Of a stretch of 62,779 nucleotides of DNA, positions 8,755 to 40,153 are shown one piece after another (position 1 is the first letter of the stretch; each line of letters begins with the position of its first letter). Made by a program: the position numbers and the translations under genes. Source of the DNA: Clostridia bacterium (lineage in GTDB: Bacteria; Bacillota; Clostridia; Christensenellales; UBA1242); NCBI GenBank assembly GCA_017464845.1, contig JAFTYD010000021.1:1-62779 (forward strand). Direction: 5' to 3'. The notes beneath the pieces were generated by a model. That model made no database searches. It was not told the DNA's origin and saw nothing but the letters and a program-made list of their open reading frames with translations.

Positions 8755-8757
8755 ATT

Positions 8758-25594: not shown

Positions 25595-25673
25595 ATTCTT
25601 TTCTCCTTTTTGATAGTATAATGATAACATAAAACAAAATCAATGTCAATAATTCTTATTTAGAATAAGAAAA

Positions 25674-25934: not shown

Positions 25935-26001
25935 AAATTTACTCCTTTAAATAATTTTAGCATAAAGAATAAATAAAAACAAATTATTAGTAAAGAAAAC
26001 A

Positions 26002-26081: not shown

Positions 26082-26200
26082 TTTCAAATATTAATATAAC
26101 TTATATAAATAATAAAATATATTTATATTAAGAATAGTTTTAGAAAAATTTTTATTTTTAATTTGTTTTAATTTATTTTAATATTTGAAGTTTCACATTT

Positions 26201-27298
26201 TTAGTTACACATTAATCTTTTTATTTCATCTCCAAGTGAATTAACCATATTAAACATATTTTGGTTAATTGAATTTCTTGTATAGATATTTTTTGTTATT
26301 TGTATATCTGAATGTCCCATAATTTTACTTTTATTAATTATAAGTTCTTCATTATCTCTTATAAGTTGACTAAATGTATGTCTTAAGTCATGTTCTCTCA
26401 TATTTATATTATGTTTGCTTAATAAGTAATCATGAAATTTATGTGTAAAATAATCTGGTTTAATTTCGTTTAAAAATAAATTTGAACATACTTGTATATC
26501 TGGAAAATAGTTATTTTTATGTTCAAGTAATTCTTCTTTTAAAAAATTACTTAAAGGAATTGCTCTTTTACTTGATTTAGTTTTTAATGACTTTTTTAAA
26601 TAACTTTTTCCATTTGTAGTTATCATATTGTTTTTAAAATAAATTATATTGTTTTCAAAATCTATATTTTCCCATGTTAAACCTAATACTTCTCCTCTTC
26701 TTGCTCCAGTCATTACGGCAATAAGGGTTGGTATATATAGGTTATAGTAATTAGTTTTTAAGTCTTTTAATATTGTTGCAATTTCTTCAAGTTCTAATGT
26801 TGTTGATTCAAATTCTTCTTCATCTTCTTTATAATTTAATTTTTTTATATTGTTTGATGAAATGTAATCATAATTTACTCCCCAGTTGATTACAGATAAA
26901 ATGTATGTAACATAGTTTTTAACAGTTTTCTTTTTTAAACCTTTATTTTGATATTCGTCAATAAATTTTTGCAAAGCTCTTGTTGTAATATCTTTAACTT
27001 TAACTTTACCAAAATATGTTCTAGCAATATTTCTATCAAGTTTATAAACAGTGTTTAATGTAGTAGGAGATAGTTTGTTTTTTCTTTCTTCGAATCTTAA
27101 ATCATCTAACTTATTAAATGTAATATCAATAAAATCGCCTTTAACTTCATATTCAAGTTCTAATGCAAGTTTTTTAGCAGTAGTTAAACCAGAAATGTTA
27201 GAAACTTGTTTTGTTTGTGTTTTACCAAATATATCTTTTTTACCCCATGCTCTAACTCTATATTTCCCATTTTCTTGCAGTTCAATTTTATATGACAT
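26201..27298 (-). CDS. Tyrosine site-specific recombinase (phage integrase family)
   Basis: C-terminal catalytic blocks TGARRGEVLGLTW (Arg), HDLRHTFSQL (H-x-x-R) and GHSDIQITKNIYT (His...Tyr). Adjacent to attL. Confidence 0.9.
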   Translation of the reverse strand: MSYKIELQENGKYRVRAWGKKDIFGKTQTKQVSNISGLTTAKKLALELEYEVKGDFIDITFNKLDDLRFEERKNKLSPTTLNTVYKLDRNIARTYFGKVKVKDITTRALQKFIDEYQNKGLKKKTVKNYVTYILSVINWGVNYDYISSNNIKKLNYKEDEEEFESTTLELEEIATILKDLKTNYYNLYIPTLIAVMTGARRGEVLGLTWENIDFENNIIYFKNNMITTNGKSYLKKSLKTKSSKRAIPLSNFLKEELLEHKNNYFPDIQVCSNLFLNEIKPDYFTHKFHDYLLSKHNINMREHDLRHTFSQLIRDNEELIINKSKIMGHSDIQITKNIYTRNSINQNMFNMVNSLGDEIKRLMCN

Positions 27299-27316
27299 AT
27301 TTATTCCTTTTTATAT

Positions 27317-27574
27317 TTAAGATATTCTTATAGATTTATTCTTATTATTTTTAGAAGGTGGAAGAATGAATAGTAATATTGCAATGTAAACAATTATTCC
27401 AAATACATAATATGCACTTGTAGTAGTAGTTGACCAAATATTGGTTATACCTGTTTTTCCAGTTACTTTTATAGAACATTCAGTTATTTCTAAGATTTCA
27501 CTTGGAGAAAATTCAAGTAAATTTATTGTAACATCATATTGTATGTTTTTTTTTACATCTCCTATTTCTTTCAT
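27317..27574 (-). CDS. Small membrane protein (85 aa); possibly the C-terminal half of a gene split at an A8 run
   Basis: C-terminal TM (YYVFGIIVYIAILLFILP). Its reading frame stays open upstream through the A8 run at 27639-27646. Confidence 0.45.
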   Translation of the reverse strand: MKEIGDVKKNIQYDVTINLLEFSPSEILEITECSIKVTGKTGITNIWSTTTTSAYYVFGIIVYIAILLFILPPSKNNKNKSIRIS

Positions 27575-27630
27575 CTCGTATTCTAATAGTTTATTATTTT
27601 TATCATAGTAATTAAATTTAATTTCTAAAT

Positions 27631-27855
27631 CTAATATATTTTTTTTGGAACTATTGTATATTTCATTGAAGTTGAAAATTCATCTTGATTATTAATGGTT
27701 ATATCATCTATTGTAGCATCTTTACATAATGGATTTAAAGTACATCTTGTTATAGGAAATAACAAAAAACATATTAATAATATAATTAGAAAAACTTTAA
27801 TGCCGGTTTTAATAGATTCGTTTTTGGGTGTTTCAGTAGTAGTATTATTATCCAT
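27631..27855 (-). CDS. Small membrane protein (74 aa); possibly the N-terminal half of a gene split at an A8 run
   Basis: N-terminal TM/signal anchor (IKVFLIILLICFLLFPI). Stops 2 codons after the A8 run. Confidence 0.45.
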   Translation of the reverse strand: MDNNTTTETPKNESIKTGIKVFLIILLICFLLFPITRCTLNPLCKDATIDDITINNQDEFSTSMKYTIVPKKIY

Positions 27856-27869
27856 ATATTTTCTCCTTA

Positions 27870-28469
27870 TTATAAACTTCTTCTGATTTCAACTGCAACT
27901 CCTATAATTCTTACGGGTGTATCTAATATTTCTTGATTTGTATAAAAAGTTGGTTTAAATTCGTTGTTTGAATTATGAGGTAAGATCCAAATTCCGTTTG
28001 GGTCTTTTTTTATTTCTTTTAAAGTAGCGTCATATCCGTTTATCATAACAACACAAATTTTACCACTTTCAGCATCGTCTTGTTGACGGACTATAACAAC
28101 ATCTCCGTTTTTAATGGTAGGAAGCATAGAGTCTCCTTTTACTTTCAAAGCAAAATATTCTCCTCTTAAGGCCATTTCTTCAGAAATCTCTTCATAATCA
28201 AGAATTTCTTCAATTGCTTCAATAGGTATTCCTGCAGGAATTGTCCCAAGTACAGGTATTTTTTTTGCTTTATTAGTTGGAGTTATTTTTCCTAGTAAAT
28301 TATCTGTTGTTGTGTTAAAAAATTCTGCAATTTTTGTTAATGTTTGTAAATCTGGTTCGCTTCCTCCAGTTTCATACATTGCTATTGTTGATCTTGAAAT
28401 TCCTATACATTTTGCTAATTTTTCTTGTGTTATTCCTTTTTGTGTTCTTAGTTGTTTTAAATTTATCAT
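27870..28469 (-). CDS. LexA/CI-like repressor (XRE HTH + S24 peptidase domain)
   Basis: N-terminal HTH (ITQEKLAKCIGISRSTIAMYETG). C-terminal GDSMLPTIKNGDVVIV (Ser nucleophile) and downstream ATLKEIKK (Lys). Confidence 0.9.
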   Translation of the reverse strand: MINLKQLRTQKGITQEKLAKCIGISRSTIAMYETGGSEPDLQTLTKIAEFFNTTTDNLLGKITPTNKAKKIPVLGTIPAGIPIEAIEEILDYEEISEEMALRGEYFALKVKGDSMLPTIKNGDVVIVRQQDDAESGKICVVMINGYDATLKEIKKDPNGIWILPHNSNNEFKPTFYTNQEILDTPVRIIGVAVEIRRSL

Positions 28470-28490
28470 TTTTTCCTCTTTTTATTAATT

Positions 28491-28593
28491 ATGTCAAAAT
28501 ACTTGACTAAAAACAATAAAATTTTAAAAATATATGTCAAAATACTTGACACCTTCTGTATATTGTGTTACTATTAGTCAAGTATCTTGACAT
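28491..28593. promoter_or_regulatory. Three 17-bp palindromic operators TGTCAA-N5-TTGACA in the repressor/cro divergent region
   Basis: O1 28491-28507 and O2 28534-28550 are both atgtcaaaatacttgac. O3 28577-28593 is gtcaagtatcttgacat, the inverted orientation with 1 mismatch. The TTGACA halves double as -35 boxes. Confidence 0.8.
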
Positions 28594-28649
28594 TTATTAT
28601 TTATTTTGTTAATTTGCTTGACATTTTATAAAATTAAAGGAGAGGTGTT

Positions 28650-28862
28650 ATGGCAGTAAAGCAGATAAATGAACTTGAATTAATAGAAGTTCGTAAAAAA
28701 ATAGGTTTGTACTCAATTAAGGAACTATGCTTGATGTTTAAAATCGGTCGAGAAAGTATCGATTATGCTTTAAATACAAATCGTTTAAAGTATATATCTC
28801 CAAATAATAGGGATAGGTATATTTATTTAAAAGATTATTTGAAATATGTTGAAAGCTTATAG
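28650..28862 (+). CDS. Cro/excisionase-like small DNA-binding protein (70 aa)
   Basis: Divergent from the repressor across the operators. HTH-like YSIKELCLMFKIGRESIDYAL. Confidence 0.6.
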   Translation: MAVKQINELELIEVRKKIGLYSIKELCLMFKIGRESIDYALNTNRLKYISPNNRDRYIYLKDYLKYVESL

Positions 28863-28870
28863 GAGTCATT

Positions 28871-29011
28871 ATGAAAAATAAAGAAGTTATAGAAAAAGAG
28901 TGGGAAAGTTATAAGAAATTTTGTTTATTACATGGATTGTTTAAAAATGATGCTAATAGTTTAAGTTATTTTGTTAATGTTTCAGAAGAGTATGGTTATG
29001 AATTTGTTTAA
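28871..29011 (+). CDS. Small hypothetical protein (46 aa), not in the ORF track
   Basis: ATG 28871 lies 4 nt after AGGAG. MKNKEVIEKEWESYKKFCLLHGLFKNDANSLSYFVNVSEEYGYEFV. Confidence 0.4.
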   Translation: MKNKEVIEKEWESYKKFCLLHGLFKNDANSLSYFVNVSEEYGYEFV

Positions 29012-29059
29012 GAGAGAATATAAGGAAATTTTGTAAAAAAAACAGATAGGAGAAAAAAA

Positions 29060-29932
29060 ATGAACATAAATGAATTGATGGTTAAAGAAGAAGGTGTACT
29101 TACATTTAGACAAAAATTTTTTTTGAAAGTACATACAAGTATAATGACATCTGGTGCTGTAATAAGTAATGCATTGTTAGATTTGGCTAAAAATTTAAGA
29201 GAAATGAAAGAAGAGGAATTGTATCTTGAAGTTGGTTTTAAAACATTTGATGATTATTGTGAACAAGTTTGTGGTTTAAAATCAAGGCAGGCTTATAACT
29301 ACATAAAAGTATTTGATGATTTGGGAGAGGAATTTTTGCATTCAAATGCAAAAATTGGAATAAGTAAATTGACTCTTTTAACAACATTATCTGAGGGGGA
29401 GAAGATTGAAATTTTTGATAATGTAGATATAGAGGGAATTTCTGTTAAAAAATTAAAACAAGAGATTGAGGATCTTAAGAAAAGAAATAAAGTTCAAGAA
29501 GATGTTGTGTATGAAAAAGATAAATTAAAGCAGGAAGTTGTAATATTAAAAGCAAAAATAAATGAACTTAAGAATCAAAATCCAAAAATAGTTGAAGTTG
29601 AAAAAGACAATTCTGAGAATTTTAAAAAGAAATTATTAGATTTAGAATACAAATTAAGAATAACTAAAGATCAACTAAAAGATAAAGAAAAAAATCTAGA
29701 TGAACAGTTACGAAGTAAAGATTTAGAAATTGAAAAATTGAAAACGTCTTATAATATTCTTTCAAAACAAGTTCAAATAAATAGTTCTGAAGAATTAGTT
29801 GAATTTAAGATGAAATTTGATGATTTACAAAAAATTGTTATTTCTCTTAAGAATTTAATTTTAAGGCTTCCTGAAGATAAACAAGAAGGTTGTAAAAATG
29901 CTTTAAAAAAGGTGGTAGAAGTTTTATGTTAA
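29060..29932 (+). CDS. Hypothetical coiled-coil protein, DUF3102-like N-terminus (290 aa)
   Basis: N-terminal region (LDLAKNLREMKEEELYLEVGFKTFDDYCEQVCGLKSRQAYNYIKVF) resembles phage/ICE DUF3102 proteins. Long Lys/Glu coiled coil. Confidence 0.4.
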   Translation: MNINELMVKEEGVLTFRQKFFLKVHTSIMTSGAVISNALLDLAKNLREMKEEELYLEVGFKTFDDYCEQVCGLKSRQAYNYIKVFDDLGEEFLHSNAKIGISKLTLLTTLSEGEKIEIFDNVDIEGISVKKLKQEIEDLKKRNKVQEDVVYEKDKLKQEVVILKAKINELKNQNPKIVEVEKDNSENFKKKLLDLEYKLRITKDQLKDKEKNLDEQLRSKDLEIEKLKTSYNILSKQVQINSSEELVEFKMKFDDLQKIVISLKNLILRLPEDKQEGCKNALKKVVEVLC

Positions 29933-30225
29933 AAGATGAATTTTTAGATATGATGAAACAAGATTTAGTTACTAAAAATGATAAAAATTTATATCAAGTT
30001 TTAGAAATTTTTGAAAATATTTTGAAAGATTATCCTAGTACATTGAATATCGATTCTAGTAAAAGTATAGAAGAGTGTTATAAGAATATGGAAAAATATG
30101 CTAAAAGTCATGCAAAAAATGGTTGCTATTGTTTCTCTGGAGTAGAATCTACTAACTTTATAATTAACTATTTTGGTTTAAAAAAACAAGAAAATATTTT
30201 TTTGAAATTAGAAGATTTTATATAG
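29926..30225 (+). CDS. Hypothetical protein (99 aa)
   Basis: ORF overlapping the upstream stop, within the same-strand early gene block. Confidence 0.45.
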   Translation: MLKDEFLDMMKQDLVTKNDKNLYQVLEIFENILKDYPSTLNIDSSKSIEECYKNMEKYAKSHAKNGCYCFSGVESTNFIINYFGLKKQENIFLKLEDFI

Positions 30226-30232
30226 TTTTGTT

Positions 30233-31570
30233 ATGAGAAAATATACTTTAAATTATTATTTAGAATTTTTGGAAGAACAAAATTCTAAAAAGTTTTTAAA
30301 TAAATTAAAAAAATATATTAATAATGTAATACCGAAAATAGAAGAGCGATATAAAAAATTATCAAAAGCTTTTTTAATTGATTATGTATCAAGATATGAA
30401 GATTTTTATATGATTACAACTTATAGAACTGATAATTTATTGCCTGTAGGGATTAATATAATCAGGTATAAAAATGGTAAGAAAATTGAACAGTTCTATA
30501 GACAGGATTTTATTAATTATTTTAGTGCTGATACATATTGGCTTAGGGGTAAGATGAATTACTTTACTAAAAGATATCTTTATTGTGATAACTTAAAGGA
30601 ATTATTTAAAGAATCTGAATTTAATTATAGTGAAGTTTGGAATTTAGGTAAAAAGATTGATTTAAAGATAAGACATCTTTTATATTTCTGTGAAACAAAA
30701 GAAATTAAAGTTATTGAAAGTTTAACTAAGATAGGTTGTTATAAACTTGCAAGAGATATTATGAATGGGAAATATTCAATAATAGATTGTAAAGATTTAG
30801 TTAAGTCTTTACGAATTCCTGATAAGAATTTTTTAAAGAAAATAAAACAAGAAGATTTTGGAGCATATTCTTTAATCATTTATAAAAGATTTTTAGATCT
30901 TTCTTTACCAGATAAATATTTCAAGTATTTAAAAGGTTTTTTTAAATCTTATTATAATCTTGAAAGATTTGATGGCTTTACACATAAAGCTTTTGTTGAT
31001 TATTATCTTGAACAGATAAAACAAAAGTTATATAAAGGTTGTTTTTGTTATTTTTATCAAGATTATCGAGATTATATTTTTGTTGGGAAAAAGTTAAATT
31101 ATAATTTTAAAGATTCAAAATTTTATAGACCATTTAATTTTAAAGTTGCTCATGATAATGCAGTAAATAAATTAGATTCAGTTAAAAATAAAGAACTGTA
31201 TTCAAAAGTTAATAAAGAACTAAGAAAATATCAATGTTTAAATTTCGAAGATAAAAAATATTTAGTTGTTATGCCTATAAAAGCTGAAGATATTATTACT
31301 GAAGGTCAACAAATGATGAATTGTGTTGGATCATATTTAGGAAGAATTAAAGATAAAAAATCAATAATTTGTTTTATTCGTAAAATTGAAGAAAGAGACA
31401 AAAGTTTTTATACATTAGAATTAAATCCAAAGGATTTTAAAGTGGTTCAGTGTAGAGGTTTTCATAATAATCCTACATCGGAAGAATACCAGGTTAAAAA
31501 GTTTGTAAGTAAGTGGTTAAAAGAAATTGTTGAAAAAAATGTTATGAAATTATCTAGAGAGGGATTATGA
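30233..31570 (+). CDS. PcfJ-like protein (445 aa)
   Basis: C-terminal EGQQMMNCVGSYLGRIKDKKSIICFIRK...FYTLEL...VVQCRGFHN matches my recollection of the PcfJ-like domain. Confidence 0.45.
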   Translation: MRKYTLNYYLEFLEEQNSKKFLNKLKKYINNVIPKIEERYKKLSKAFLIDYVSRYEDFYMITTYRTDNLLPVGINIIRYKNGKKIEQFYRQDFINYFSADTYWLRGKMNYFTKRYLYCDNLKELFKESEFNYSEVWNLGKKIDLKIRHLLYFCETKEIKVIESLTKIGCYKLARDIMNGKYSIIDCKDLVKSLRIPDKNFLKKIKQEDFGAYSLIIYKRFLDLSLPDKYFKYLKGFFKSYYNLERFDGFTHKAFVDYYLEQIKQKLYKGCFCYFYQDYRDYIFVGKKLNYNFKDSKFYRPFNFKVAHDNAVNKLDSVKNKELYSKVNKELRKYQCLNFEDKKYLVVMPIKAEDIITEGQQMMNCVGSYLGRIKDKKSIICFIRKIEERDKSFYTLELNPKDFKVVQCRGFHNNPTSEEYQVKKFVSKWLKEIVEKNVMKLSREGL

Positions 31571-31770
31571 AAGAAAGTTTTTATAAGAAATTAAAGAGAT
31601 ATATAAGTTTATTAAGAGAGGGTAATAAGAATTTTATTAATTATTTATTTTCAAAGTTTGATAAATATCGTGAAGAAGAAAAGAAAAATTTAGATGATAT
31701 AAGAGTTGATAAACTCTTAATTTGGTCAGCATTGAAAGATTTTGAAGCTGATTTAATAATAGAATTTTAG
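31567..31770 (+). CDS. Hypothetical protein (67 aa)
   Basis: ATGA overlap with the upstream gene. Confidence 0.4.
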   Translation: MKESFYKKLKRYISLLREGNKNFINYLFSKFDKYREEEKKNLDDIRVDKLLIWSALKDFEADLIIEF

Positions 31771-31793
31771 TTTAAAATTATAGGAGAAATATT

Positions 31794-32087
31794 ATGGCAT
31801 TATATAAAAAACAACTTTTTGTAAAAACAAGAAAAGGTATATGGAAATGTAAAGAATGTAAGATAGAGAAGATACCTTGTAGTGAAACTTTTTGGAAAAA
31901 AAGTAATTTAATTGAAAAGAAATCTCAAATTGGAGAACACACTTATCTTACCTTTGTATATTCAAAGAATGGATTTGATAAGATTGTTTCAAAAGCTATT
32001 ACTTATTTTGGTAAAAATGAAAAGGTAATAAGAGAATTAATAACTACATCAAATGTTTTACCAAAGTCTTATAAGGGCATGAAATAA
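31794..32087 (+). CDS. Hypothetical protein (97 aa)
   Basis: RBS TAGGAGA. Possible Cys pair (CKECKIEKIPC). Confidence 0.45.
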   Translation: MALYKKQLFVKTRKGIWKCKECKIEKIPCSETFWKKSNLIEKKSQIGEHTYLTFVYSKNGFDKIVSKAITYFGKNEKVIRELITTSNVLPKSYKGMK

Positions 32088-32115
32088 AAAAACACCTAAT
32101 GTAAAGGTGTTTAGT

Positions 32116-32340
32116 TTAAGAAAGCTTTTTTACAATGAAGTTGTGTTTGTCGTTTGTTGGTATCAAATCAAAATTTGCTTTTTTAAGCTCTGATTTTAAG
32201 ATTGTAAGATTTGGGTCGTCAGACAATATGTTTTGATTAAAACATACTTCTAACTCATTTGAAAGATTGAAACTATTTGGTGTAGTAGTTAAATCATTAA
32301 TGAATTCATGTGCGAATTCAAGTGGTGTTTGTTTTTCCAT
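32116..32340 (-). CDS. Hypothetical small protein (74 aa), element copy of 25710..25934
   Basis: 66/74 identical residues. The promoter and terminator flanks are also homologous. Confidence 0.6.
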   Translation of the reverse strand: MEKQTPLEFAHEFINDLTTTPNSFNLSNELEVCFNQNILSDDPNLTILKSELKKANFDLIPTNDKHNFIVKKLS

Positions 32341-32463
32341 AAATTTACTCCTTTAAGTAATTTTAACATAAAGGAAAAATAAAAACAAATTACTGATAAA
32401 AGAAATTTAAAAGTCGAGCAAATAAATAGTATTTGTAATTAAAAAAAAATAATAGGGAGAATT

Positions 32464-32655
32464 ATGAGATATAGTACAAAAAGAATATGGGGTACAGTAT
32501 TTTTATTTATTGGAATAATTATTTTATCATTAATAATTACCTCATTAGTTTTAGCTTCCATTCATGAAAATTCACTTGTTTCTGAATGGAAAAGTTGGTT
32601 TGGTCTTATGAAATTAGTAAAAGAACCAGTTGTTTCTTTAATGTTAAAAAAATAA
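32464..32655 (+). CDS. Small single-TM protein (63 aa)
   Basis: RBS AGGGAGA. TM segment WGTVFLFIGIIILSLIITSLVLA. Confidence 0.5.
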   Translation: MRYSTKRIWGTVFLFIGIIILSLIITSLVLASIHENSLVSEWKSWFGLMKLVKEPVVSLMLKK

Positions 32656-32670
32656 ATATAGGAGATTTCT

Positions 32671-34038
32671 ATGAGAAAAATAATTAACTTTATATTGATA
32701 TTGTTACTTATTCTTAATTGTTACTCTCCTGGTATAAATACAGCTTTTGCTGATGTAGATAGTGGTGTATATACAAATATACTTGATGATTTAGAAAAAG
32801 ATAAAAATTTTAAAAAAGAAGATTATCCATTAATTGAAGAAGATTATTCTTTACAGTTAATTCAAGTTGCAGAAAGTGAAAATAAAGAATTATTTATTTA
32901 TGTGTATCAACCTAATGGAAATAAAGATATTGTCGCAACTTATATTAATATGAGTCTAAATTCTGAGTTTACTAATCCATCTTTATATTCTTTAAAATTA
33001 CTTAATTATACAGGTACATTGTTTAAATATAAAGTCAATAGTATTGAGATAGATTTTGATTCGGTAAGATATTACAATATTGCCTCTATATTTAGAGATT
33101 TTATTCCAGATATTGATGAAGATGTAGATTCAAATAATACAATTAATTCAGTAAGTTTTGAAGTTGGCCAATTATGGGCTTTATCGTTTGATGATAATAA
33201 CAATTTGGTTTCTGAAATGCAAAAAACAGAAGTGGTTACTATTGTTGATAAATATGTTGGTTTCTTAAGATATAATAGTGATAATTTTTGGACTGGAAAA
33301 AAATGTGATGTTCACTTTGTAGCTTTTTCTACCGATTATAAAATTGATGAATTATATGAAGTAGATATTAGATATATTACTAAGAAATATAAGACTACTA
33401 CAGATTTAGGTATTCTTATTGAATCTTATGAATCAGGAACTAAATATGATTCTTCTATTACTCATGTTGAAACATTAACTTCTGATGAAAGTATTGATGC
33501 TACTTTAGGTTTTATAATTAAAGAAAAATATAGTTGGGATATGATTTCTACTTCAGAAAAATTTATAGAAGATAGAGAAAAAGAGAATATACAATTTAGT
33601 TCTTCTGCAAAAAAACAAATAAAAGATAAAGAATGGGTATTAAATTTTTATATTTCAGATTATAAAAAATGGAATGATCGTGTAGCAGGAACTCCTGTTG
33701 TTTCTTTTGAGACAGGAACTAAGGTTGAGCAGGTTACTTTACTTAGATTAAAATTTAAAACTGATGGTAAAATTTATAATTTAGGTGTGGTTGACAATAT
33801 ACAAACTGGAAGTGATACTCCTTCAGGTATTGGTTATACATTATTAGACTTAATAAAAAAAATACTAGATTATTTAAAAAATAATTGGTGGTGGATATTG
33901 TTAAGTGTTTTAGGATTTATTATTTTAATACCATTATTACCAATAATTATTCCATTGTTATTTAAAGGTATAAAGTTGTTATTTAAAGGATTGTGGTGGC
34001 TTGTAAGTACACCATTTGAAATATTTAAAGAAAAATAG
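32671..34038 (+). CDS. Secreted protein with N-terminal signal peptide and C-terminal TM anchor (455 aa)
   Basis: MRKIINFILILLLILNCYSPGINTAFA signal. C-terminal WWWILLSVLGFIILIPLLPIIIPLLF. This is the topology of filamentous-phage pIII-type proteins. No sequence family recognised. Confidence 0.55.
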   Translation: MRKIINFILILLLILNCYSPGINTAFADVDSGVYTNILDDLEKDKNFKKEDYPLIEEDYSLQLIQVAESENKELFIYVYQPNGNKDIVATYINMSLNSEFTNPSLYSLKLLNYTGTLFKYKVNSIEIDFDSVRYYNIASIFRDFIPDIDEDVDSNNTINSVSFEVGQLWALSFDDNNNLVSEMQKTEVVTIVDKYVGFLRYNSDNFWTGKKCDVHFVAFSTDYKIDELYEVDIRYITKKYKTTTDLGILIESYESGTKYDSSITHVETLTSDESIDATLGFIIKEKYSWDMISTSEKFIEDREKENIQFSSSAKKQIKDKEWVLNFYISDYKKWNDRVAGTPVVSFETGTKVEQVTLLRLKFKTDGKIYNLGVVDNIQTGSDTPSGIGYTLLDLIKKILDYLKNNWWWILLSVLGFIILIPLLPIIIPLLFKGIKLLFKGLWWLVSTPFEIFKEK

Positions 34039-34048
34039 GAGATAGGAA

Positions 34049-35458
34049 GTGGTAAGAAGAATAATAGGATACATTTTAATTGGACTTCTTGCAATAGGAT
34101 CTTGTTTTGGAATTGGTTATGGAATTGCTTATTCACGTCTTAGAAAAAACACATCAATGGAATATGTTAATTCTTTAAAGAAAGAAATAAGAGATTATGA
34201 AAAACTTGTTGATAATTATTATTTAGAGATATCTACTTTAAATAAAACTATTGCAAACTTAAAACTTGAAATATTAAATAATGAAAGTATATCATCAGAT
34301 TATTTGGTTCAAATAGAATATTTAAATACACAAATAAATGAATTAAATGAGTTACTTAATATTTACAAAGGCAATGAAGAAAATTATATTAAAACGATTA
34401 ATGAACTTTCTTCTGAAATTGAATTATTAAATATTCAAATATTAGAATTGAAGTATGACTTAGATGAAGTATCTACAGCTAATGAAGAGTTAAATTTAAG
34501 ATTAACTAGATTAAATAATTCTATTAGTAATTTAGAAAATTATATAATTAATAACTTATCTGATAATGAAGTTTTAATTACATTTGAAGTTGATAATAGC
34601 ATAGAATCAATTCAAATTGTTGAGAAGAATTCAACAATAAATATTGATGAACTTGTTATTCCTGAAAATATTGAATTGTTAGGTTGGGTAGTTGATGGAG
34701 TTCTAGTTAATTCAGATACATATGTTGTAACAGAAAATACTAAGTTTATTGCCTTATTTAATGAATATGTAATGGTTGATGAATATTATGATAATAATTT
34801 AAATGAATCATTTTCTAATGTGTTAAAATCAAGAGCATTTTTATTTGATGATTATGGAGTAGATTTTTCTAATATTCAAGCAAATATTAATTATGTAAAG
34901 CTTCAAAATGAAAATCTTATAATTGGTTTTAAAAATGGAAGTAATGAAACAGATATGTTTGAAGTTACTTATGATGTGGCTAAATTTAATTTAAATGTTT
35001 CTAGTTTTAAAGCTGAAGATTTAGAGAAAATTATTCAATTAGAAATAAAGAATTTTAATAGTTATACAAAAGCAACAACACTTTCAATTGGAGATAAGTT
35101 TGATAATAAACTTAATGCTTTAGTTAATAATGTTGTTGGTTGTGTTAATGAAAATATTGATACTTCAAATGTTTACTTTGAGTTTGTTTGTTCTAATGAA
35201 TCATCAAAAGAAATTTATACAATGAATATTTTACTTGTTACAGAAAATGGAAATTCATATAAAATTAATAATTTTGGTATTATTACTGGAGTAGAAAATT
35301 TTTCATTTATTGAAGAAGATGTTAAAAATTATTGTTTATCTAAATTTTCTGGAATTATTGGTGTTAGTTTAGAAGGTTTGTCTAGTTCTAGTGGTTTTAA
35401 TTTTAGTGAAGAAAAATTAGATATTTATTTTTCAACACTTAATTTTGTATTAGTTTGA
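34049..35458 (+). CDS. N-terminally anchored coiled-coil protein (469 aa)
   Basis: GTG start after TAGGAGATAGGAA. TM IIGYILIGLLAIGSCFGIGYGIA followed by heptad-rich LNxxIxxL repeats. Confidence 0.5.
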   Translation: MVRRIIGYILIGLLAIGSCFGIGYGIAYSRLRKNTSMEYVNSLKKEIRDYEKLVDNYYLEISTLNKTIANLKLEILNNESISSDYLVQIEYLNTQINELNELLNIYKGNEENYIKTINELSSEIELLNIQILELKYDLDEVSTANEELNLRLTRLNNSISNLENYIINNLSDNEVLITFEVDNSIESIQIVEKNSTINIDELVIPENIELLGWVVDGVLVNSDTYVVTENTKFIALFNEYVMVDEYYDNNLNESFSNVLKSRAFLFDDYGVDFSNIQANINYVKLQNENLIIGFKNGSNETDMFEVTYDVAKFNLNVSSFKAEDLEKIIQLEIKNFNSYTKATTLSIGDKFDNKLNALVNNVVGCVNENIDTSNVYFEFVCSNESSKEIYTMNILLVTENGNSYKINNFGIITGVENFSFIEEDVKNYCLSKFSGIIGVSLEGLSSSSGFNFSEEKLDIYFSTLNFVLV

Positions 35459-35475
35459 AATAGGGAGAAAGAGTA

Positions 35476-36210
35476 TTGAAAAAAATATTATTGATTATTT
35501 TTGTATTGTTAACTTGTATTGCTACTTTTGTATTAGGGTTTTATGTAAAAGACAATACAACAAAAGAAATTGATTCAAATACTTCTAATTTAGAAGATAT
35601 TGTTGAAGAAAAAAATAGCTTGATTAGTGATTTAATAAAAGAAAATGAAAGTTTAAAAAATAATAATGAAGTTGTTTCTTATGATAATACAAAATTTGCT
35701 TTTAATTTAAGTGAATTAGGTCTTTATAAAAACAATGAATATACAGTGTTTACAAATGTAAATGATCCAAATCTTGCTTATGGAATTATTAGTAATGATA
35801 TGTTTTATTTTGAAGATTCATATTATGAAAATCTTGATTCTGTTCTTAGAATTCAAGTAAGTGTTGAAGAGAATTTTCAACAAGTTAATCTAGATGCTTA
35901 TCATTATTATTTTTGTAGAACAATTACATTTGATTTAAAAAATTCAAGTGTTGATGAGTTAGAATCAATAAAATCAATTTCTTTAAAAATTGATGGAGTA
36001 GATTATGTTATTGATATGACTAATAATGTAATTGAAATTAATGATGTAAATTGTTCAGTTGGTTTAGTAATTTTGCCTTTGGAAAATTGTGAACAATATT
36101 ATACTCAGTTGTATATTATTCCATCTGCTAGTGATTCAAGTGTAGTATTTAATATTAATAGTTTAGAAATGACTTCTTTTGAAGTTGAAAGTTCAACAAT
36201 TAATTTGTAA
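35476..36210 (+). CDS. N-terminally anchored/secreted hypothetical protein (244 aa)
   Basis: TTG start after AGGGAGAAAGAG. Signal/anchor KKILLIIFVLLTCIATFVLGF. Confidence 0.5.
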   Translation: MKKILLIIFVLLTCIATFVLGFYVKDNTTKEIDSNTSNLEDIVEEKNSLISDLIKENESLKNNNEVVSYDNTKFAFNLSELGLYKNNEYTVFTNVNDPNLAYGIISNDMFYFEDSYYENLDSVLRIQVSVEENFQQVNLDAYHYYFCRTITFDLKNSSVDELESIKSISLKIDGVDYVIDMTNNVIEINDVNCSVGLVILPLENCEQYYTQLYIIPSASDSSVVFNINSLEMTSFEVESSTINL

Positions 36211-36220
36211 TTTAGTGCGA

Positions 36221-36320
36221 TGGTGGGGACACTTCAATACTACCCACCACTAGATATATTTAATTGTATTTTCCTCCTTTATACAATTAGATATATTACC
36301 AACTACCAAGGGCCCGGTAG
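36221..36320 (+). other. Structured, locally G/C-rich intergenic region with three hairpins (candidate packaging signal / complementary-strand origin)
   Basis: TGGTGGG(36221-27)/CCCACCA(36243-49). TAATTGTAT(36261-69)/ATACAATTA(36281-89) with loop TTTCCTCCTTT, flanked by direct TAGATATATT repeats. CTACC-AAGGGCCC-GGTAG (36303-20). Confidence 0.5.
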
Positions 36321-36350
36321 TAAAAAAAATAAATATGAAAGGGAAATAAT

Positions 36351-36800
36351 ATGGAAGATTTAAGAAAATTAAATGAAATGGTAAAAGCGATTAGTTTAGG
36401 TTTAGATAAGAATACTAATAGAAATTATGGAGAAAGAGCAATTTGTACTGTAGAATTTTTTAATGGAGAAAAATTAACATTTAAAGATAAAAATAATCAG
36501 TTGTATAGATTGTTGATGGCTTATAAGAAATGTGGAATTGATATTAATAATGTTATTACTTCAAAAAGATTAATTGAAGATTATAAATCAAATAAGTTAG
36601 ATGATATTTCTGAAGATGATAAGGATAGTATTGACAATGATAAGTCGACATTTGTAGCTGTGCTTTATGAAGTAGATGGATATAAATACTATTTATTCCC
36701 ATCTGATTTTACTGTGCTTAGAATTATTGATTTATATTATAACAAGTTTTTAGAACTTCGTTCTGAAAAAAATAAAATTAAAAAAGATATTAAGGAGTAA
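36351..36800 (+). CDS. Hypothetical protein (149 aa)
   Basis: ORF with RBS AAAGGGAAA. No motif recognised. Confidence 0.45.
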   Translation: MEDLRKLNEMVKAISLGLDKNTNRNYGERAICTVEFFNGEKLTFKDKNNQLYRLLMAYKKCGIDINNVITSKRLIEDYKSNKLDDISEDDKDSIDNDKSTFVAVLYEVDGYKYYLFPSDFTVLRIIDLYYNKFLELRSEKNKIKKDIKE

Positions 36801-36803
36801 ATA

Positions 36804-36935
36804 ATGAGAAAAAGATATCTTAAAAATGCTAATAAAAAATGTGTAAAAAAAGTAACAAGAGTTACTGAATCATATTCTGATGGTTCTAAAGTTATTACAT
36901 ATAGAATTCCATCAAAAAAAAGAACTAAATATTAA
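36804..36935 (+). CDS. Very basic small protein (43 aa), not in the ORF track
   Basis: ATG 36804 lies after AAGGAG. MRKRYLKNANKKCVKKVTRVTESYSDGSKVITYRIPSKKRTKY has 14 Lys/Arg of 43 residues. Confidence 0.4.
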   Translation: MRKRYLKNANKKCVKKVTRVTESYSDGSKVITYRIPSKKRTKY

Positions 36936-36959
36936 TTAGTTTTTTAGTGAGGATTAATT

Positions 36960-37178
36960 ATGGGAGTTATTGATTATACTAAATTTAAACTATCTTATAA
37001 TGATTTGCGAAAATATTATAAAGGTTATGGTGTTTATAATCGTAAAGGTGAATTAGTTAATATTAGTTCAATGTCTAATAACGAATTACGTTCTTTTCAA
37101 AATGATTTGGCTAATGAAAGAAAAAATTTTTTATCTGGCAAAAAAGGTTGGAAAGTTATTATTCGAAAAATCAAATAA
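36960..37178 (+). CDS. Hypothetical small protein (72 aa)
   Basis: RBS GTGAGGA. Basic C-terminus. Confidence 0.45.
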   Translation: MGVIDYTKFKLSYNDLRKYYKGYGVYNRKGELVNISSMSNNELRSFQNDLANERKNFLSGKKGWKVIIRKIK

Positions 37179-37274
37179 AAAATTATTTTGGAGTAAATTA
37201 TGCATATTGTCAAAATCAGTAAAAATAACTAAATACTAAAATGAACTTATTGTCAAATAAAATACGAGGTTTAT

Positions 37275-38183
37275 ATGGTTAGAAAATTTAATGATGTGTT
37301 CGATTTGAATAAACGAATTGGGAAAATGCTTATATGTGGAGTAGAAGGTTCTGGAAAGACTTTACTTTCTACATATATTGGTATTCAAAAAATGTTAAGA
37401 GGTCAGGAAGATTGTTGGAAGTCTTTTAAAGAAATAGATAATATAAATAAATTAGGTTATACTTTTTCTAAAAACTTTGAACATTTGTTATTTTCTAATT
37501 ATGATATGAATTGTAAAGGTACTTATGTACCTAATCGTAAAACAAATTTACTAGATCCATTTAAGGTTGGGTTGGTATGTAAAAATTATGAAACAGTACC
37601 ATTACCACCATATTCCTTTTTAATAATAACAGAAGCTCAAAGAGTTTTTAATGCGTATATGTGGCAATATTTAAGAGCTGAAGTTCGAGCATTTTGGGAA
37701 ACATCAAGGCAAGCTAATATAGAAATAATACTTGATACAAATCAACCTGAATTAATTTATAAAGGTATGAGAGAATTGTTAAATCGAATAATTTATTTAT
37801 ATAAAGATACAGAAGAGGTAATAGATAAAGAAGGGAATGTTAAAGGTCATAGACTATACATTAAAGAGTTTAAAAAGTATAAATACCTAGAAAAGTATCT
37901 TGAGAATTCTAATGAAAATTTAGTAATGGACACATATATTTTAGAATTAGTTGGTTGTTTGTATTCAAATTATGATTCTTATCAATGTAAGATGTTACAT
38001 TTAAATGGTAGAACAGATGATGATTATAATATTGCAAAGTTCCCAGATATAAAAACTATTGAAGATGTTGAAATGTTTGCAGAAAATTTTGGATTATATC
38101 CTCCAGAAGGTTATTATGTTAAACCTTCAACAAATGTAAAACAAAGTAATAATAAAGAAGAAATTATAGGAGAAATATTTTAA
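37275..38183 (+). CDS. Zot-like P-loop NTPase (candidate filamentous-phage pI-type morphogenesis ATPase)
   Basis: Walker A GVEGSGKT (37338-37361) near the N-terminus. Walker B-like FLIITEAQRVF. SRQANIEIILDTNQPELIYKGMRELLNRIIYL resembles the HRHxGxDIxLxTQ...IR block of Zot/pI. No TM segment seen. Confidence 0.55.
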   Translation: MVRKFNDVFDLNKRIGKMLICGVEGSGKTLLSTYIGIQKMLRGQEDCWKSFKEIDNINKLGYTFSKNFEHLLFSNYDMNCKGTYVPNRKTNLLDPFKVGLVCKNYETVPLPPYSFLIITEAQRVFNAYMWQYLRAEVRAFWETSRQANIEIILDTNQPELIYKGMRELLNRIIYLYKDTEEVIDKEGNVKGHRLYIKEFKKYKYLEKYLENSNENLVMDTYILELVGCLYSNYDSYQCKMLHLNGRTDDDYNIAKFPDIKTIEDVEMFAENFGLYPPEGYYVKPSTNVKQSNNKEEIIGEIF

Positions 38184-38557
38184 TGGAAGAATTAGATAAT
38201 TTAACAGAAAATACAGATAGCATGTTAAAGTTAAGACTTAAAGGTAAACTTATTAATGATATATCTTCTGTATTTTCTGAAATAGCTCAGAATAAAGGTG
38301 TTTATGCTGAGTGTGGTCGATTTGGTCGAAGATTTAAAAATAAAGCTGTAAAGAGTATTTATACAGATTTTTGTAAAGGTTTAAAAAGTTTAGATAAAAA
38401 AATACCAGTATTTATTGAAATTCCAAAGCTTCAAGAATATTCAAATGGTACATATGAAGAAGTACATAGTAATAAAAAAGAAAGAACACTCGTTTCTTCT
38501 CCTATTCAAAAAGAAGTAGAAGGGAAAATAGAAGAAGTTAAGTATCTTGTTCAGTAG
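38183..38557 (+). CDS. Hypothetical protein (124 aa)
   Basis: TAATG overlap with the Zot-like gene. Confidence 0.45.
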   Translation: MEELDNLTENTDSMLKLRLKGKLINDISSVFSEIAQNKGVYAECGRFGRRFKNKAVKSIYTDFCKGLKSLDKKIPVFIEIPKLQEYSNGTYEEVHSNKKERTLVSSPIQKEVEGKIEEVKYLVQ

Positions 38558-38615
38558 TTTAATTTATAAATTGTTTTTTTTGTTTATTAGTAATAATAAT
38601 AAATTGGTGTGGTAT

Positions 38616-38719
38616 TGTGGTAAACTCATAGAGTTTTCCATCAATTCCAGTCAATGTGGTTAACTCGTTGAGTTATCCAAAGTTATCCATATTTCCACAT
38701 TTTGTGGTAATGTGGATAA
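38616..38719. promoter_or_regulatory. Cluster of DnaA-box-like 9-mers
   Basis: Perfect TGTGGATAA (38711-19). One-mismatch boxes TTATCCAAA (38673-81), TTATCCATA (38683-91) and TGTGGTTAA (38655-63). Weaker TGTGGTAAA (38616-24) and TGTGGTAA (38703-10). Confidence 0.55.
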
Positions 38720-38794
38720 CTGGCATTGACCGAAGCGCCATAAAAAAGACCTTAGAAAATACTTCGTAGTTGTATTAAAAATACAAATATGATA

Positions 38795-38832
38795 GACACA
38801 GTCTAAGGTATAGTATTACCTTAGACTGTGTC
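38795..38832 (+). promoter_or_regulatory. Putative rolling-circle origin stem-loop carrying TAGTATTAC
   Basis: Perfect 16-bp inverted repeat GACACAGTCTAAGGTA / TACCTTAGACTGTGTC around loop TAGTAT. TAGTATTAC (38811-38819) spans the loop and the first 3 nt of the 3' arm. Lies 115 nt upstream of rep. Confidence 0.65.
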
Positions 38833-38912
38833 GCATTGTCGCATGATACTATTTTATAGATGTTTTTAAACATTTTAAATTGTCGCATTGATGTCGCATT
38901 ACTGTGTCGCAT
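38829..38912 (+). repeat. Five direct TGTCGCAT iterons adjacent to the stem-loop
   Basis: Copies at 38829-36, 38837-44, 38881-88, 38892-99 and 38905-12. The first overlaps the 3' arm of the hairpin. Two copies extend to ACTGTGTCGCAT. Confidence 0.8.
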
Positions 38913-38946
38913 ATAAAAATTGTTCATTTTTAAAGGGGGAATAAAA

Positions 38947-40026
38947 GTGGATGAAATTGAGATTATTGATTTTGATGAAAGTAAATTAAATAGTCAAAGT
39001 AGAAGATGGATGTTGACTATAAATAATCCAGTCCAATCTGATGAAGAAATAAAAGATTATGTTGAAAATTTAGAACATTTTAAATATTGTATGTTTCAAA
39101 GGGAGAAAGGTAATGAAACTGGGACTATTCATATTCAGATGTTTATAATTTTTTCAATTGGCAAGAGATTTAGTACTATAAAAAATTATTTTCCGACAGC
39201 TCATATAGAACAAGCAAAAGGAAATAATGCTCAGTGTAGAGATTATTGTTCTAAAACAGATACTCGTATTTCTGATAATTATTATGAACTTGGTAAGTTT
39301 GCAGAAGAAAGAGCAAGAACTGATATTACTAATTTCATGCAATTGGTTGAGGCTGGAGCATCTGATTATGAATTAAAAAAATTGTATCCTAAACTTTTTT
39401 TAGATTATTTTCATAAACTACCAATTATTAGAATGACTACTGATATTGATTATTCAAAACAGGATAGAGATATTGAAGTTATATATGTTTATGGTAAAGC
39501 TGGTAAAGGGAAAAGTACCTATGTAAAAAAAGAAACTATTAATGATAGAGTTTTTAGGGTTGATACATTTGATTTATCAGCATTTTCAAATTATCAAGGA
39601 GAAAATGTTCTTGTTATTGATGAATTTAAAGGTCAATTTAAAATACAAACATTAAATAAATTACTTGATAGCTTTCCAGTTAAGTTAAGAGGGTTAAATA
39701 GTTTAGTTTTTGCAAGATATACAAAAGTTTATATAATTTCAAATTTTCATTATAAAGACCTGTATAAAGATGAGCAAGTTGAGAATATAGACCAGTATAA
39801 AGGTTTTGTGCGAAGACTTCATAGGGTAATTAAACTTGTAGATTATAAATTACCACCAATAATTGAAAGAGATACAATCTTTGAAGATATACCAAATGAG
39901 GAATTAATTCCATTTGGAAGAAAGAAAAGAATAAATAAGGTAATAGAATATAATAATGGAGTACCTCGTATAACTTATGATATTGATTTTTCAGAAATAC
40001 AAGTAGATAAATTAGATATTATATAA
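38947..40026 (+). CDS. Rolling-circle replication initiator: HUH endonuclease + SF3 helicase, CRESS-DNA-virus-like Rep
   Basis: Motif I WMLTINN (39007-27), motif II HIQ (39130-38), motif III YCSK (39244-55). Walker A GKAGKGKS (39493-516), Walker B VLVIDEF, motif C IISN. GTG 38947 lies 6 nt after AAAGGGGGA and is preferred to TTG 38920. Confidence 0.85.
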   Translation: MDEIEIIDFDESKLNSQSRRWMLTINNPVQSDEEIKDYVENLEHFKYCMFQREKGNETGTIHIQMFIIFSIGKRFSTIKNYFPTAHIEQAKGNNAQCRDYCSKTDTRISDNYYELGKFAEERARTDITNFMQLVEAGASDYELKKLYPKLFLDYFHKLPIIRMTTDIDYSKQDRDIEVIYVYGKAGKGKSTYVKKETINDRVFRVDTFDLSAFSNYQGENVLVIDEFKGQFKIQTLNKLLDSFPVKLRGLNSLVFARYTKVYIISNFHYKDLYKDEQVENIDQYKGFVRRLHRVIKLVDYKLPPIIERDTIFEDIPNEELIPFGRKKRINKVIEYNNGVPRITYDIDFSEIQVDKLDII

Positions 40027-40043
40027 AATTAGATATTATATAA
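40010..40043 (+). repeat. Perfect 17-bp tandem duplication AATTAGATATTATATAA x2 at the rep stop / attR junction
   Basis: Copy 1 at 40010-40026 contains the rep TAA. Copy 2 at 40027-40043 runs into attR. The AATTAGATAT core also occurs at 36286. Confidence 0.8.
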
Positions 40044-40121
40044 AAAAAGACTAGAATGAATCTAGTCTTTTTCATTTGGTAGCGTAAACTGGGTTCGAAC
40101 CAGTGACCTCATGGGTATGAA
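40042..40121. repeat. attR: 80-bp perfect direct repeat overlapping the intact tRNA-Met 3' end
   Basis: Identical to 26002..26081. Confidence 0.9.
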
Positions 40122-40153
40122 CCATGCGCTCTAACCAACTGAGCTACTACGCC
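40077..40153 (-). tRNA. tRNA-Met (anticodon CAT), elongator type
   Basis: 77-nt cloverleaf: acceptor GGCGTAG/TTACGCT, D arm GCTC-AGTTGGTTA-GAGC, anticodon arm CATGG-TTCATAC-CCATG, T arm ACTGG-TTCGAAC-CCAGT, encoded CCA. The anticodon arm resembles Bacillus elongator tRNA-Met. Confidence 0.9.

Follow-up and report, generated by a model that had tools for sequence, protein, structure and literature searches.

A CRESS-class Rep with a circovirus-type origin in a probable inovirus-like prophage of a gut Clostridia bacterium

The contig JAFTYD010000021.1 of a Clostridia bacterium (GCA_017464845.1), whose full 62,779 nt are referred to here as the window, encodes at 38947-40026 a genuine replication initiator (Rep) of the class known from the CRESS-DNA viruses (single-stranded, circular and Rep-encoding), in which an HUH endonuclease is joined to a superfamily 3 (SF3) helicase. 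An origin of replication stands 5' of the gene, and both lie in a region (26082-40121) that is probably a single, apparently intact temperate inovirus-like prophage with a CRESS-type replication module, inserted in the 3' end of a tRNA-Met gene. CRESS-DNA viruses are thought to derive Rep from bacterial rolling-circle replicons. The bacterial side, termed pCRESS, has been described almost wholly at the protein level so far; in the window locus, as in about 80 relatives, the system's cis-acting part is also shared, namely a nonanucleotide in a hairpin loop, iterons and rep downstream. Most of these Reps travel with an assembly ATPase of the filamentous-phage type and not on plain plasmids. The conserved origin and the linkage of Rep to a Zot-like ATPase sharpen the question of the bacterial roots of CRESS-DNA virus replication.

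The Rep protein and its placement

The open reading frame (ORF) at 38947-40026 translates into 359 codons and a stop, and every motif quoted in the initial annotation, which had proposed a CRESS-type Rep in a bacterial integrated element, is borne out by the translation. The replication module comprises the following features.

38947-40026, plus strand: rep, rolling-circle initiator of 359 aa (translation, PF02407 and PF00910, 7LAR match, AlphaFold2/Foldseek)
Domain layout of Rep: N-terminal HUH (HuQ-type) endonuclease, oligomerisation linker, SF3 helicase and an extra C-terminal beta-rich domain
38795-38832, plus strand: plus-strand origin, a hairpin without mismatches whose tip is TAGTATTAC (38811-38819) (single-stranded DNA (ssDNA) fold, conservation, compensatory changes)
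38829-38912, plus strand: five direct TGTCGCAT iterons, putative Rep-binding sites (clustering; same layout in relatives)
38558-38794, plus strand: structured non-coding region with DnaA-box-like 9-mers (ssDNA fold -43.8 kcal/mol, z = -9.0)

The endonuclease motifs occur in the order WMLTINN (motif I), TIHIQMF (motif II, HuQ type) and DYCSKTD (motif III), the last of which holds the catalytic tyrosine, Tyr100, within YCSK (a YxxK pattern). The helicase motifs are GKAGKGKS (Walker A), VLVIDEF (Walker B) and IISN (motif C), with R290 as the arginine finger. Both Pfam profiles that the initial annotation had suggested as a check score above their gathering thresholds: PF02407 (Viral_Rep) covers residues 19-103 with 54 bits against 26, and PF00910 (the SF3 'RNA_helicase' family) covers residues 179-247 with 28.1 bits against 21.5. 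In a phmmer search the top PDB match is the full-length Rep of porcine circovirus 2 (PCV2), 7LAR (E = 2.9e-19, residues 18-274), and the next are circovirus and nanovirus nuclease domains. Because both Pfam thresholds are passed and PCV2 Rep is matched by sequence, the resemblance is not a coincidence of motifs. Across an alignment of 38 homologues (39-67% identity), T24, N26, H62, Q64, Y100, C101 and K103 are invariant, as are G183, G188, K189, E226, N266 and R290 in the helicase part, with D225 nearly so.

A structure prediction had also been proposed, and the resulting AlphaFold2 model, built on the homologue alignment, has a mean predicted local distance difference test (pLDDT) score of 85.4 and gives the N-terminal domain the HUH-endonuclease fold. 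Foldseek searches of the PDB match the model over its full length to a redondovirus Rep (2e-14). The modelled nuclease domain superimposes on M-Rep of the nanovirus faba bean necrotic yellows virus (FBNYV; 6H8O) with a TM-score of 0.90 and a root-mean-square deviation of 1.5 A, and on PCV2 (6WDZ/5XOR) with about 0.75, while the modelled ATPase domain reaches 0.81 against the PCV2 ATPase. Among predicted viral structures the model has more than 1,000 Rep matches. An initiator of the pT181, RepB or phiX-A type is ruled out by the Rep profiles, the circovirus Rep sequence match and the predicted fold. Neither of the two outcomes that the initial annotation had named as fatal to its claim, membership of an unrelated Rep family or absence of the HUH fold, was found, and CRESS Rep identity is upheld by Pfam, the PCV2 match and the predicted fold. 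Residues ~300-345 (39844-40023) form a beta-rich C-terminal domain that is confidently modelled and lies past the region aligned with PCV2 Rep; in this part the homologues, of 299-449 aa, differ strongly in length.

Translation of rep likely starts at the GTG at 38947. The sequence GGGGG (38935-38939) lies 7 nt 5' of this codon, and the homologues begin at the same alignment column. A later start is excluded because Q17 is nearly invariant and R19 invariant, and the sole alternative is an in-frame TTG at 38920, where the mechanically called ORF begins.

For placement of the protein, reference Reps were taken from the supplementary alignment of Kazlauskas 2019 (PMC6668415), with 15 pCRESS2 sequences used. 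BLAST against single representatives gave 3e-51 for pCRESS2, 2e-36 for pCRESS3 and 4e-13 for pCRESS1, and the group-profile scores were 229 bits for pCRESS2, 180 for pCRESS3, 121 for CRESSV3 and 100 for pCRESS1. Core pCRESS2 loci score 370-390 bits, and the window Rep lies about 150 bits lower. The phylogeny called for in the initial annotation bears out kinship with bacterial Reps in part: Rep is nearest to bacterial pCRESS2 and not to CRESSV3, and in a neighbour-joining tree it falls in a 9-locus subclade (bootstrap 92) that contains no 2019 reference sequence used, but the join of this subclade to pCRESS2 has a bootstrap of 18. On sequence grounds we call the Rep pCRESS2-like, in a separate subclade, and leave strict membership aside. 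The integration traits of pCRESS2 are present (a tyrosine integrase, att repeats, a tRNA gene and a Firmicute that encodes Spo0A), whereas the lack of homologues of viral structural or morphogenesis proteins, also given as a pCRESS2 trait in 2019, is not shared, since the element has a conserved Zot/pI-family ATPase.

The origin and its conservation

The strongest functional evidence is the canonical nonamer origin 5' of rep, which was absent from the initial annotation. Its 16-bp hairpin lies about 130 nt 5' of rep, inside a 390-nt gap, and folds as ssDNA with -16.3 kcal/mol against -4.7 ± 2.0 for shuffled sequences (z = -5.9; 0/200 shuffles as good). The loop sequence TAGTATTAC, which we take to be the canonical circovirus/nanovirus nonanucleotide, is present only once in the 62.8-kb window, and the nick is predicted at TAGTATT|AC, between 38817 and 38818. 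Two of the TGTCGCAT iterons form a tandem pair that adjoins or overlaps the hairpin's 3' arm, and the other three lie just 5' of the rep ribosome-binding site. All five octamers are identical, and 5 of the 6 copies in the window fall inside 84 nt, where 0.39 would be expected by chance. A hairpin with a NANTATTAC-type nonanucleotide and iterons near rep, the mark of a CRESS-Rep origin, is thus found here. Circovirus origins have the nonamer in the loop, direct repeats that abut the 3' arm and rep immediately downstream, and the arrangement in the window reproduces this layout.

The origin can be followed through related loci, of which 131 were gathered from exact-protein contig look-ups, one GTDB genome match, IMG/VR, a metagenome scan and GenBank phage and plasmid records; the scan of genome contigs contributed one distant locus, in a Clostridia metagenome-assembled genome (MAG), with 45% identity. 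Each of the first loci (10/10) has exactly one AGTATTAC, which lies 5' of Rep and on its strand. The wider count took in, as eligible, loci whose sequence extends 350 nt or more upstream of Rep, and a hairpin was scored if, no further than 1.8 kb upstream, NANTATTAC stood on a stem of 8 bp or longer. Such a hairpin is present in 78 of 96 eligible loci, compared with 10 of 199 other NANTATTAC-like sites in the same loci. The nonamer is exactly TAGTATTAC in 74/90, and the related loci have 60 distinct hairpin sequences. A plain terminator was considered as another account of the hairpin; it is flagged on the minus strand only, where there is no credible gene, and is rejected because the loop nonamer is invariant over 60 different stems.

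Covariation was scored in the largest in-register hairpin class, which consists of 28 equal-length sequences selected for at least 7 contiguous pairs. In this set 96% of cells are paired, 9 of 10 stem positions show double-sided changes and covariation scores 1.12, where shuffles give 0.21 (0/500) and slid controls no more than 0.31; it should be noted, as a point that detracts from the case, that both the covariation statistic and the percentage paired are partly circular because the hairpins were pre-selected for pairing. The independent evidence for the origin is the contrast with control sites together with the fixed position relative to Rep.

The iteron layout is shared by relatives, and the words themselves differ by Rep clade (TGTCGCAT, TGACGCAT, CGTCGCAT, TGTAACA, TGTGTTT, TGTGCCA, TCGCACA), as is expected if iterons are the recognition sites of Rep. 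The pCRESS3 plasmid p4M (NC_003527.1; L132 among our loci) contains no ANTATTAC at any position, so that the nonamer cannot be common to the entire p4M-like cluster. Therefore, the canonical nonamer tracks this Rep group and not the whole cluster. Plasmid p4M has an FtsK/SpoIIIE-domain gene beside RepA, and Zot linkage is not cluster-wide.

The non-coding region between the hairpin and the preceding ORF (38558-38794) folds on both strands. Within 65 nt of it (38655-38719) fall 4 of the 24 DnaA-box-like 9-mers of the window, one of them a perfect TTATCCACA. The equivalent region in the related locus L003 is structured (z = -4.8). These features are only suggestive of a candidate complementary-strand origin and/or packaging signal.

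The integrated element and its reading as a phage

The element measures 14,040 bp (26082-40121) and is delimited by perfect 80-nt direct repeats. According to the initial annotation, Rep belongs to an element that integrates at a tRNA and also encodes an integrase, a repressor and a Zot-like ATPase; each of these has been located. Apart from the replication module, the map reads as follows.

26002-26081: attL, 80-nt copy of the tRNA-Met 3' part and downstream hairpin (100% identical to 40042-40121)
26201-27298, minus strand: tyrosine integrase (PF00589, 8.3e-16, and SAM-like N-terminal domains)
27317-27855, minus strand: two small transmembrane (TM) proteins (ORFs, hydropathy)
27870-28469, minus strand: CI/LexA-like helix-turn-helix and Peptidase_S24 repressor (PF00717, 5e-29; PF01381, 5e-18)
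28479-28593: three operator-like repeats, putative lysogeny switch (repeat search)
28650-28862, plus strand: divergent 70-aa ORF (ORF call)
29060-32340: accessory cargo block, not in the closest relatives (gene maps of L004 and L007)
30233-31570: PcfJ-like protein (PF14284, 7.7e-34)
32116-32340, minus strand: 74-aa ORF cassette, duplicated outside attL
32464-32655, plus strand: 63-aa single-TM protein (ORF, hydropathy)
32671-34038, plus strand: 455-aa protein with signal peptide and C-terminal anchor, of pIII-like topology (ORF, hydropathy)
34049-35458, plus strand: 469-aa coiled-coil protein with N-terminal TM segment (ORF, hydropathy)
35476-36210, plus strand: 244-aa protein with N-terminal TM segment (ORF, hydropathy)
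36351-37178, plus strand: small ORFs (ORF calls)
37275-38183, plus strand: Zot/pI-like P-loop ATPase, putatively for morphogenesis or extrusion (PF05707, PHROG 197)
38183-38557, plus strand: basic ORF of 124 aa, lying between Zot and the origin and conserved at this place (39-44% identity in L004 and L007)
40042-40121: attR, overlapping tRNA-Met(CAT) at 40077-40153, minus strand (ARAGORN, Rfam tRNA, direct repeat)

With the exception of one 74-aa ORF, all genes from 28650 to 40026 lie on the plus strand, and between 29 and 40 kb the GC skew has strongly positive values (0.24-0.46). The relatives L004 and L007-L009, whose Reps are 65% identical to that of the window, have the same integrase-to-Rep order without the accessory block: integrase, repressor, small ORFs, two large membrane proteins, Zot, an ORF of about 125 aa, a gap and Rep. 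This shared order marks the element as one prophage type and therefore not a mosaic. The integrase occupies the same position in L004, L007, L009, L003 and L061, and the module at 32464-37178 is syntenic with L004 and L007-L009; since no Pfam or PHROG family matched that module, structural or membrane roles for its products are proposed from order and topology. A tandem composite of an integrase island and an integrase-less inovirus was considered and rejected, as the inner copy of a duplicated 295-nt cassette has no att and the relatives keep a single integrase-to-Rep unit.

Family scans of the element proteins found no relaxase or type IV secretion genes. PHROGs gave no match for Rep and, across the element, matched Zot and one weak family of unassigned function; PADLOC returned no defence matches for Rep, Zot or the cargo, and an Rfam scan returned the tRNA only. 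The 124-aa ORF between Zot and the origin has no Pfam, PHROG or PADLOC match, and an RstB-like identity for it was rejected because, besides lacking a family match, it does not resemble the RstB-like ORF known from bajarodino virus 30.

Several further observations concern the left half of the element. Between the S24 repressor gene (minus strand) and the 70-aa ORF (plus strand), a word of about 17 nt, ATGTCAAAATACTTGAC or inverted GTCAAGTATCTTGACAT, occurs in three copies at 28479-28593, and these repeats look like operators of a CI/Cro-type switch. Besides the PcfJ-like protein, the accessory block encodes a weakly DUF3102-like protein of 290 aa, so that plasmid-type cargo sits within a putative ssDNA prophage. 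The 295-nt cassette with the 74-aa ORF (minus strand) occurs twice, at 25712-26006 and 32118-32412, with 88% identity; one copy flanks attL on its outer side and the other, within the prophage, ends exactly where att would start. The duplicated cassette may have been left behind by an earlier element, or it may be a mobile moron.

Spo0A is encoded about 3 kb from the tRNA-Met insertion site and the host is therefore a Firmicute of the endospore lineage; it is presumably a spore-forming gut bacterium. Metagenome contigs of the same host (e.g., sample ERZ27256818) stop at ~25651 on the left and ~40074 on the right, the left break being 350 nt outside attL so as to include the duplicated 74-aa cassette, and the contig with the pyruvate formate-lyase (PFL) activase gene stops before the element. 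These contig ends suggest repeated or polymorphic insertion in natural populations. In the left flank, a 256-aa ORF (24860-25630, minus strand) between the gene for the PFL-activating enzyme and the 74-aa cassette has slightly higher GC and no Pfam or PADLOC match; its product has no exact record in the contig collection.

The protein encoded at 37275-38183 matches PF05707 with 23.1 bits (gathering score 20.3) as well as PHROG 197. An iterative profile built from this protein and two annotated Zot proteins found a Zot-like ORF in 49 loci. Where the locus is at least 6 kb long, a Zot-like gene lies within ~5 kb of Rep in 43 of 57 cases, and several of the 14 larger loci without one are contigs that stop before the expected position. 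PF05707 is matched by 18 of 22 representative Zot-like proteins, the best at 2e-21. An N-terminal TM segment, resembling that of the Enterocloster inovirus pI, is found in a minority of relatives (L002, L074, L090 and one L081 copy). At 522-11060, locus L081 (OIYH01000128.1) has a tandem pair of diverged Rep-ori-Zot units, whose Rep genes lie at 675-1643 and 6413-7381 and whose shared parts are 83-92% identical as DNA; the pair recalls the tandem prophage arrays of CTXphi-type inoviruses. In the window, candidates for coat proteins can be named by size, topology and position only: the 63-aa TM protein and the 455-aa protein with signal peptide and C-terminal anchor.

Overall, the element is presumed to be of the ssDNA kind, and we hold its reading as a phage to be the most likely. 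Several points weigh against this. To our knowledge, no phage with a CRESS-type Rep has been verified. Neither an excised circle nor an empty att site was found in look-ups of the left-flank protein and of flanking contigs, and among the element ORFs no major or minor coat protein is matched by Pfam or PHROGs. The Zot-like ATPase of the window lacks a TM segment (maximum 19-residue Kyte-Doolittle mean 0.96), as do 43 of the 50 Rep-linked Zot-like ATPases, with 7/50 reaching a hydropathy of 1.6; Roux 2019 (PMC6813254) required one or two TM segments in pI-like clusters. Because no coat protein is recognised and this ATPase is TM-less, virion formation is at most putative. At 14 kb and with PcfJ-like cargo, the element is also larger and more plasmid-like than its relatives, and it stands at the upper end of the inovirus size range. 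The L004 equivalent of the structured region at 38558-38794 is not significantly structured (z = -1.1). Finally, the Clostridia inoviruses that are experimentally known to be secreted (Enterocloster; Burckhardt 2023, PMC10061712) use a different initiator, which rules out a link to them.

Several of these points would suit a non-viral 'integrated plasmid' of the pCRESS2 type, which excises and replicates by rolling circle without forming a virion and uses its Zot-like and membrane proteins for DNA transfer or in another role. Such a plasmid would account for the unmatched coat families, the TM-less Zot-like protein and the PcfJ-like cargo, which is typical of conjugative plasmids, and it agrees with the absence of viral structural homologues from pCRESS elements (Kazlauskas 2019), with the FtsK-like translocases that replace Zot in p4M and one pCRESS2 element, and with the 14/57 larger loci that have no Zot-like gene. 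We nevertheless regard it as unlikely. Zot/pI ATPases are a hallmark of filamentous phages, and the gene occupies the place typical of inoviruses, after the genes for a small TM protein and for one that combines a signal peptide with a C-terminal anchor; circular relatives recovered from faeces that contain Zot as well as this type of Rep have been deposited as Inoviridae, and inovirus-like capsid genes are reported in ctbe30 and ctbc27 (Tisza 2020). The element also lacks the relaxase and type IV secretion genes sought in the family scans.

A defective remnant, with Rep and origin as relics or with Rep co-opted by the host and no replication of a mobile element, is very improbable. The att repeats are identical at 80/80 positions, Rep retains every catalytic residue, the hairpin has no mismatch, the five iterons are identical, and every module of the relatives is present as uninterrupted ORFs. 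Moreover, metagenome assemblies of this host end to the left and to the right of the element, the pattern expected if the insertion is polymorphic or repeated, even though neither an excised form nor an empty site was observed and the extra cargo and duplicated 74-aa cassette could mean rearrangement. The idea that a eukaryotic CRESS virus sequence was misassembled into, or contaminates, bacterial DNA could draw on the 25-30% identity of Rep to Reps of 2-3 kb CRESS-type genomes in IMG/VR, but it is effectively refuted: GC content and skew are continuous with the element, rep lies between Zot and attR/tRNA, numerous independent contigs and MAGs, the contigs as long as 463 kb, have the same junctions and bacterial genes to either side, and Rep falls with the pCRESS2 references from bacteria rather than with CRESSV3.

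If the element is a temperate phage, its cycle may be pictured from its parts. The S24 repressor would keep the prophage silent and, once it is cleaved, the integrase would excise a double-stranded circle, as the gene content suggests. Rep would be produced and, to judge by the conserved layout, bind the TGTCGCAT iterons that flank the hairpin. By homology with PCV2 and nanovirus Reps, the HUH domain (H62, Q64, Y100) would nick the extruded loop at TAGTATT|AC, leaving Rep linked to the 5' end through Tyr100. Host polymerase would then extend the 3'-OH as a hexamer of the SF3 helicase unwinds the duplex, and after one round Rep would cut and rejoin the strand to free a circular plus strand, presumably the coding-sense strand because the nonamer lies on the gene strand. 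The structured region 5' of the origin might conceivably prime the complementary strand and/or mark the DNA for packaging, and the Zot-like ATPase and membrane proteins would export or assemble the ssDNA.

Whether the lineage as a whole consists of particle-forming Firmicute phages, with a TM-less Zot-like ATPase, a complete circovirus/nanovirus-type module and a Rep subclade that was unsampled in 2019, is a more tentative matter, to which we give slightly less than an even chance. If so, a full CRESS origin-initiator system would already have been assembled in bacterial viruses before or outside the eukaryotic CRESS viruses, a culturable bacterial model for CRESS replication would be at hand, and the TM-less Zot would imply a route of assembly or export unlike that of classical pI.

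Precedents and comparison with known systems

Firmicute elements that sit in tRNA genes and encode a CRESS-like Rep, in some cases beside Zot, were already on record, though this combination has received little study. According to Kazlauskas 2019 (PMC6668415), elements integrated in a chromosome account for 97.5% of the Reps that fall outside pCRESS7 and pCRESS9, which contradicts the statement in the initial annotation that bacterial relatives are mainly found on small plasmids. Most such elements have tyrosine integrases and lie in tRNA genes, and pCRESS elements are described there as plasmids without viral structural genes, although the supplementary table lists a Zot/pI in a Hungatella pCRESS2 element. 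Origins are not given: the main text does not use 'nonanucleotide' nor the supplements 'stem-loop', and the sole AGTATTAC found is part of InterPro text. Among inoviruses, Roux 2019 (PMC6813254) describes one Rep family, iPF_00203, with a superfamily 3 helicase (S3H) domain 'typical of eukaryotic ssDNA viruses'. Tisza 2020 (PMC7000223) reports two circular genomes, ctbe30 and ctbc27, with a CRESS Rep and inovirus genes and with matches to prophages in Clostridia chromosomes, and proposes a bacteria-tropic branch of CRESS viruses. Circular 5-10 kb 'bajarodino virus' genomes deposited in GenBank as Inoviridae (PQ006184, PQ006165 and others) contain Zot, this type of Rep and the TAGTATTAC hairpin. 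The 'intermediate lifestyle' raised in the initial annotation is a known idea because the pairing of a CRESS-type Rep with Zot or inovirus genes had previously been recorded, and the element shows no sign of being an evolutionary intermediate.

The gain is one of definition and testability, through a conserved origin and a strong Rep-Zot linkage, and not a new category. Tarasova & Khayat 2021 treat nonanucleotides for the viral Reps only. In the literature searched, beyond which further papers are possible, we found no published origin analysis of these Zot/CRESS-Rep elements, and such an analysis of this group appears to be unpublished; no paper there joins TAGTATTAC with inoviruses, and pCRESS2 appears in four papers only and bajarodino in none. 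Nick-site specificity, iteron recognition and the phage status of the elements can all be tested in bacteria. The findings also suggest that many 'integrated plasmids' of pCRESS2 merit re-examination as prophages.

Compared with the pCRESS2 elements as published, the element in the window shares an HUH and SF3 Rep with circovirus-like motifs and insertion by a tyrosine integrase in a tRNA gene with att repeats; here, however, the origin has been delineated and Rep is as a rule linked to Zot. With the inovirus-like CRESS-Rep genomes (iPF_00203, ctbe30/ctbc27 and the bajarodino records) it has in common a Zot/pI-like ATPase and an HUH and S3H Rep, and those sources left the origin unanalysed. 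The window Rep is only ~30% identical to the bajarodino Reps, and unlike those genomes the element is integrated, measures 14 kb against 5-10 kb and has its own integrase and S24 repressor. Its Zot-like protein is TM-less, whereas those of the relatives L002, L074 and L090 have an N-terminal TM segment.

Classical and Gram-positive inoviruses (Ff, CTXphi, Pf, Enterocloster) resemble the element, at least broadly, in their small one-strand layout, in a Zot/pI ATPase encoded after membrane-protein genes and in a non-coding plus-strand origin beside a structured segment, as well as in temperate life with att repeats and, in L081, tandem copies. They differ in replicating by initiators of the gpII/PF05144 or Rep_trans type or by a transposase-based system where the element has an HUH and SF3 Rep, and in having a pI with a TM segment and recognisable coat proteins, neither of which is seen here.

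The Circoviridae and Nanoviridae share the motif set uuTuNN / HuQ / YxxK with Walker A, Walker B, motif C and the arginine finger, predicted folds that superimpose (TM-scores of 0.90 for the nuclease and 0.81 for the ATPase), and a hairpin with (N)AGTATTAC in its loop, short direct repeats at the 3' arm and rep directly downstream. In contrast, the element has a bacterial host, a 14-kb genome and integrase-mediated lysogeny, its iterons are octamers where theirs are hexamers, its Rep has an extra C-terminal beta-rich domain, and sequence identity between the Reps is only ~20-30%. Pfam and PHROG family scans found no jelly-roll capsid gene among the element ORFs. With the Cressdnaviricota at large, which have genomes of 2-6 kb, a jelly-roll capsid and eukaryotic hosts, only the Rep-origin module is common.

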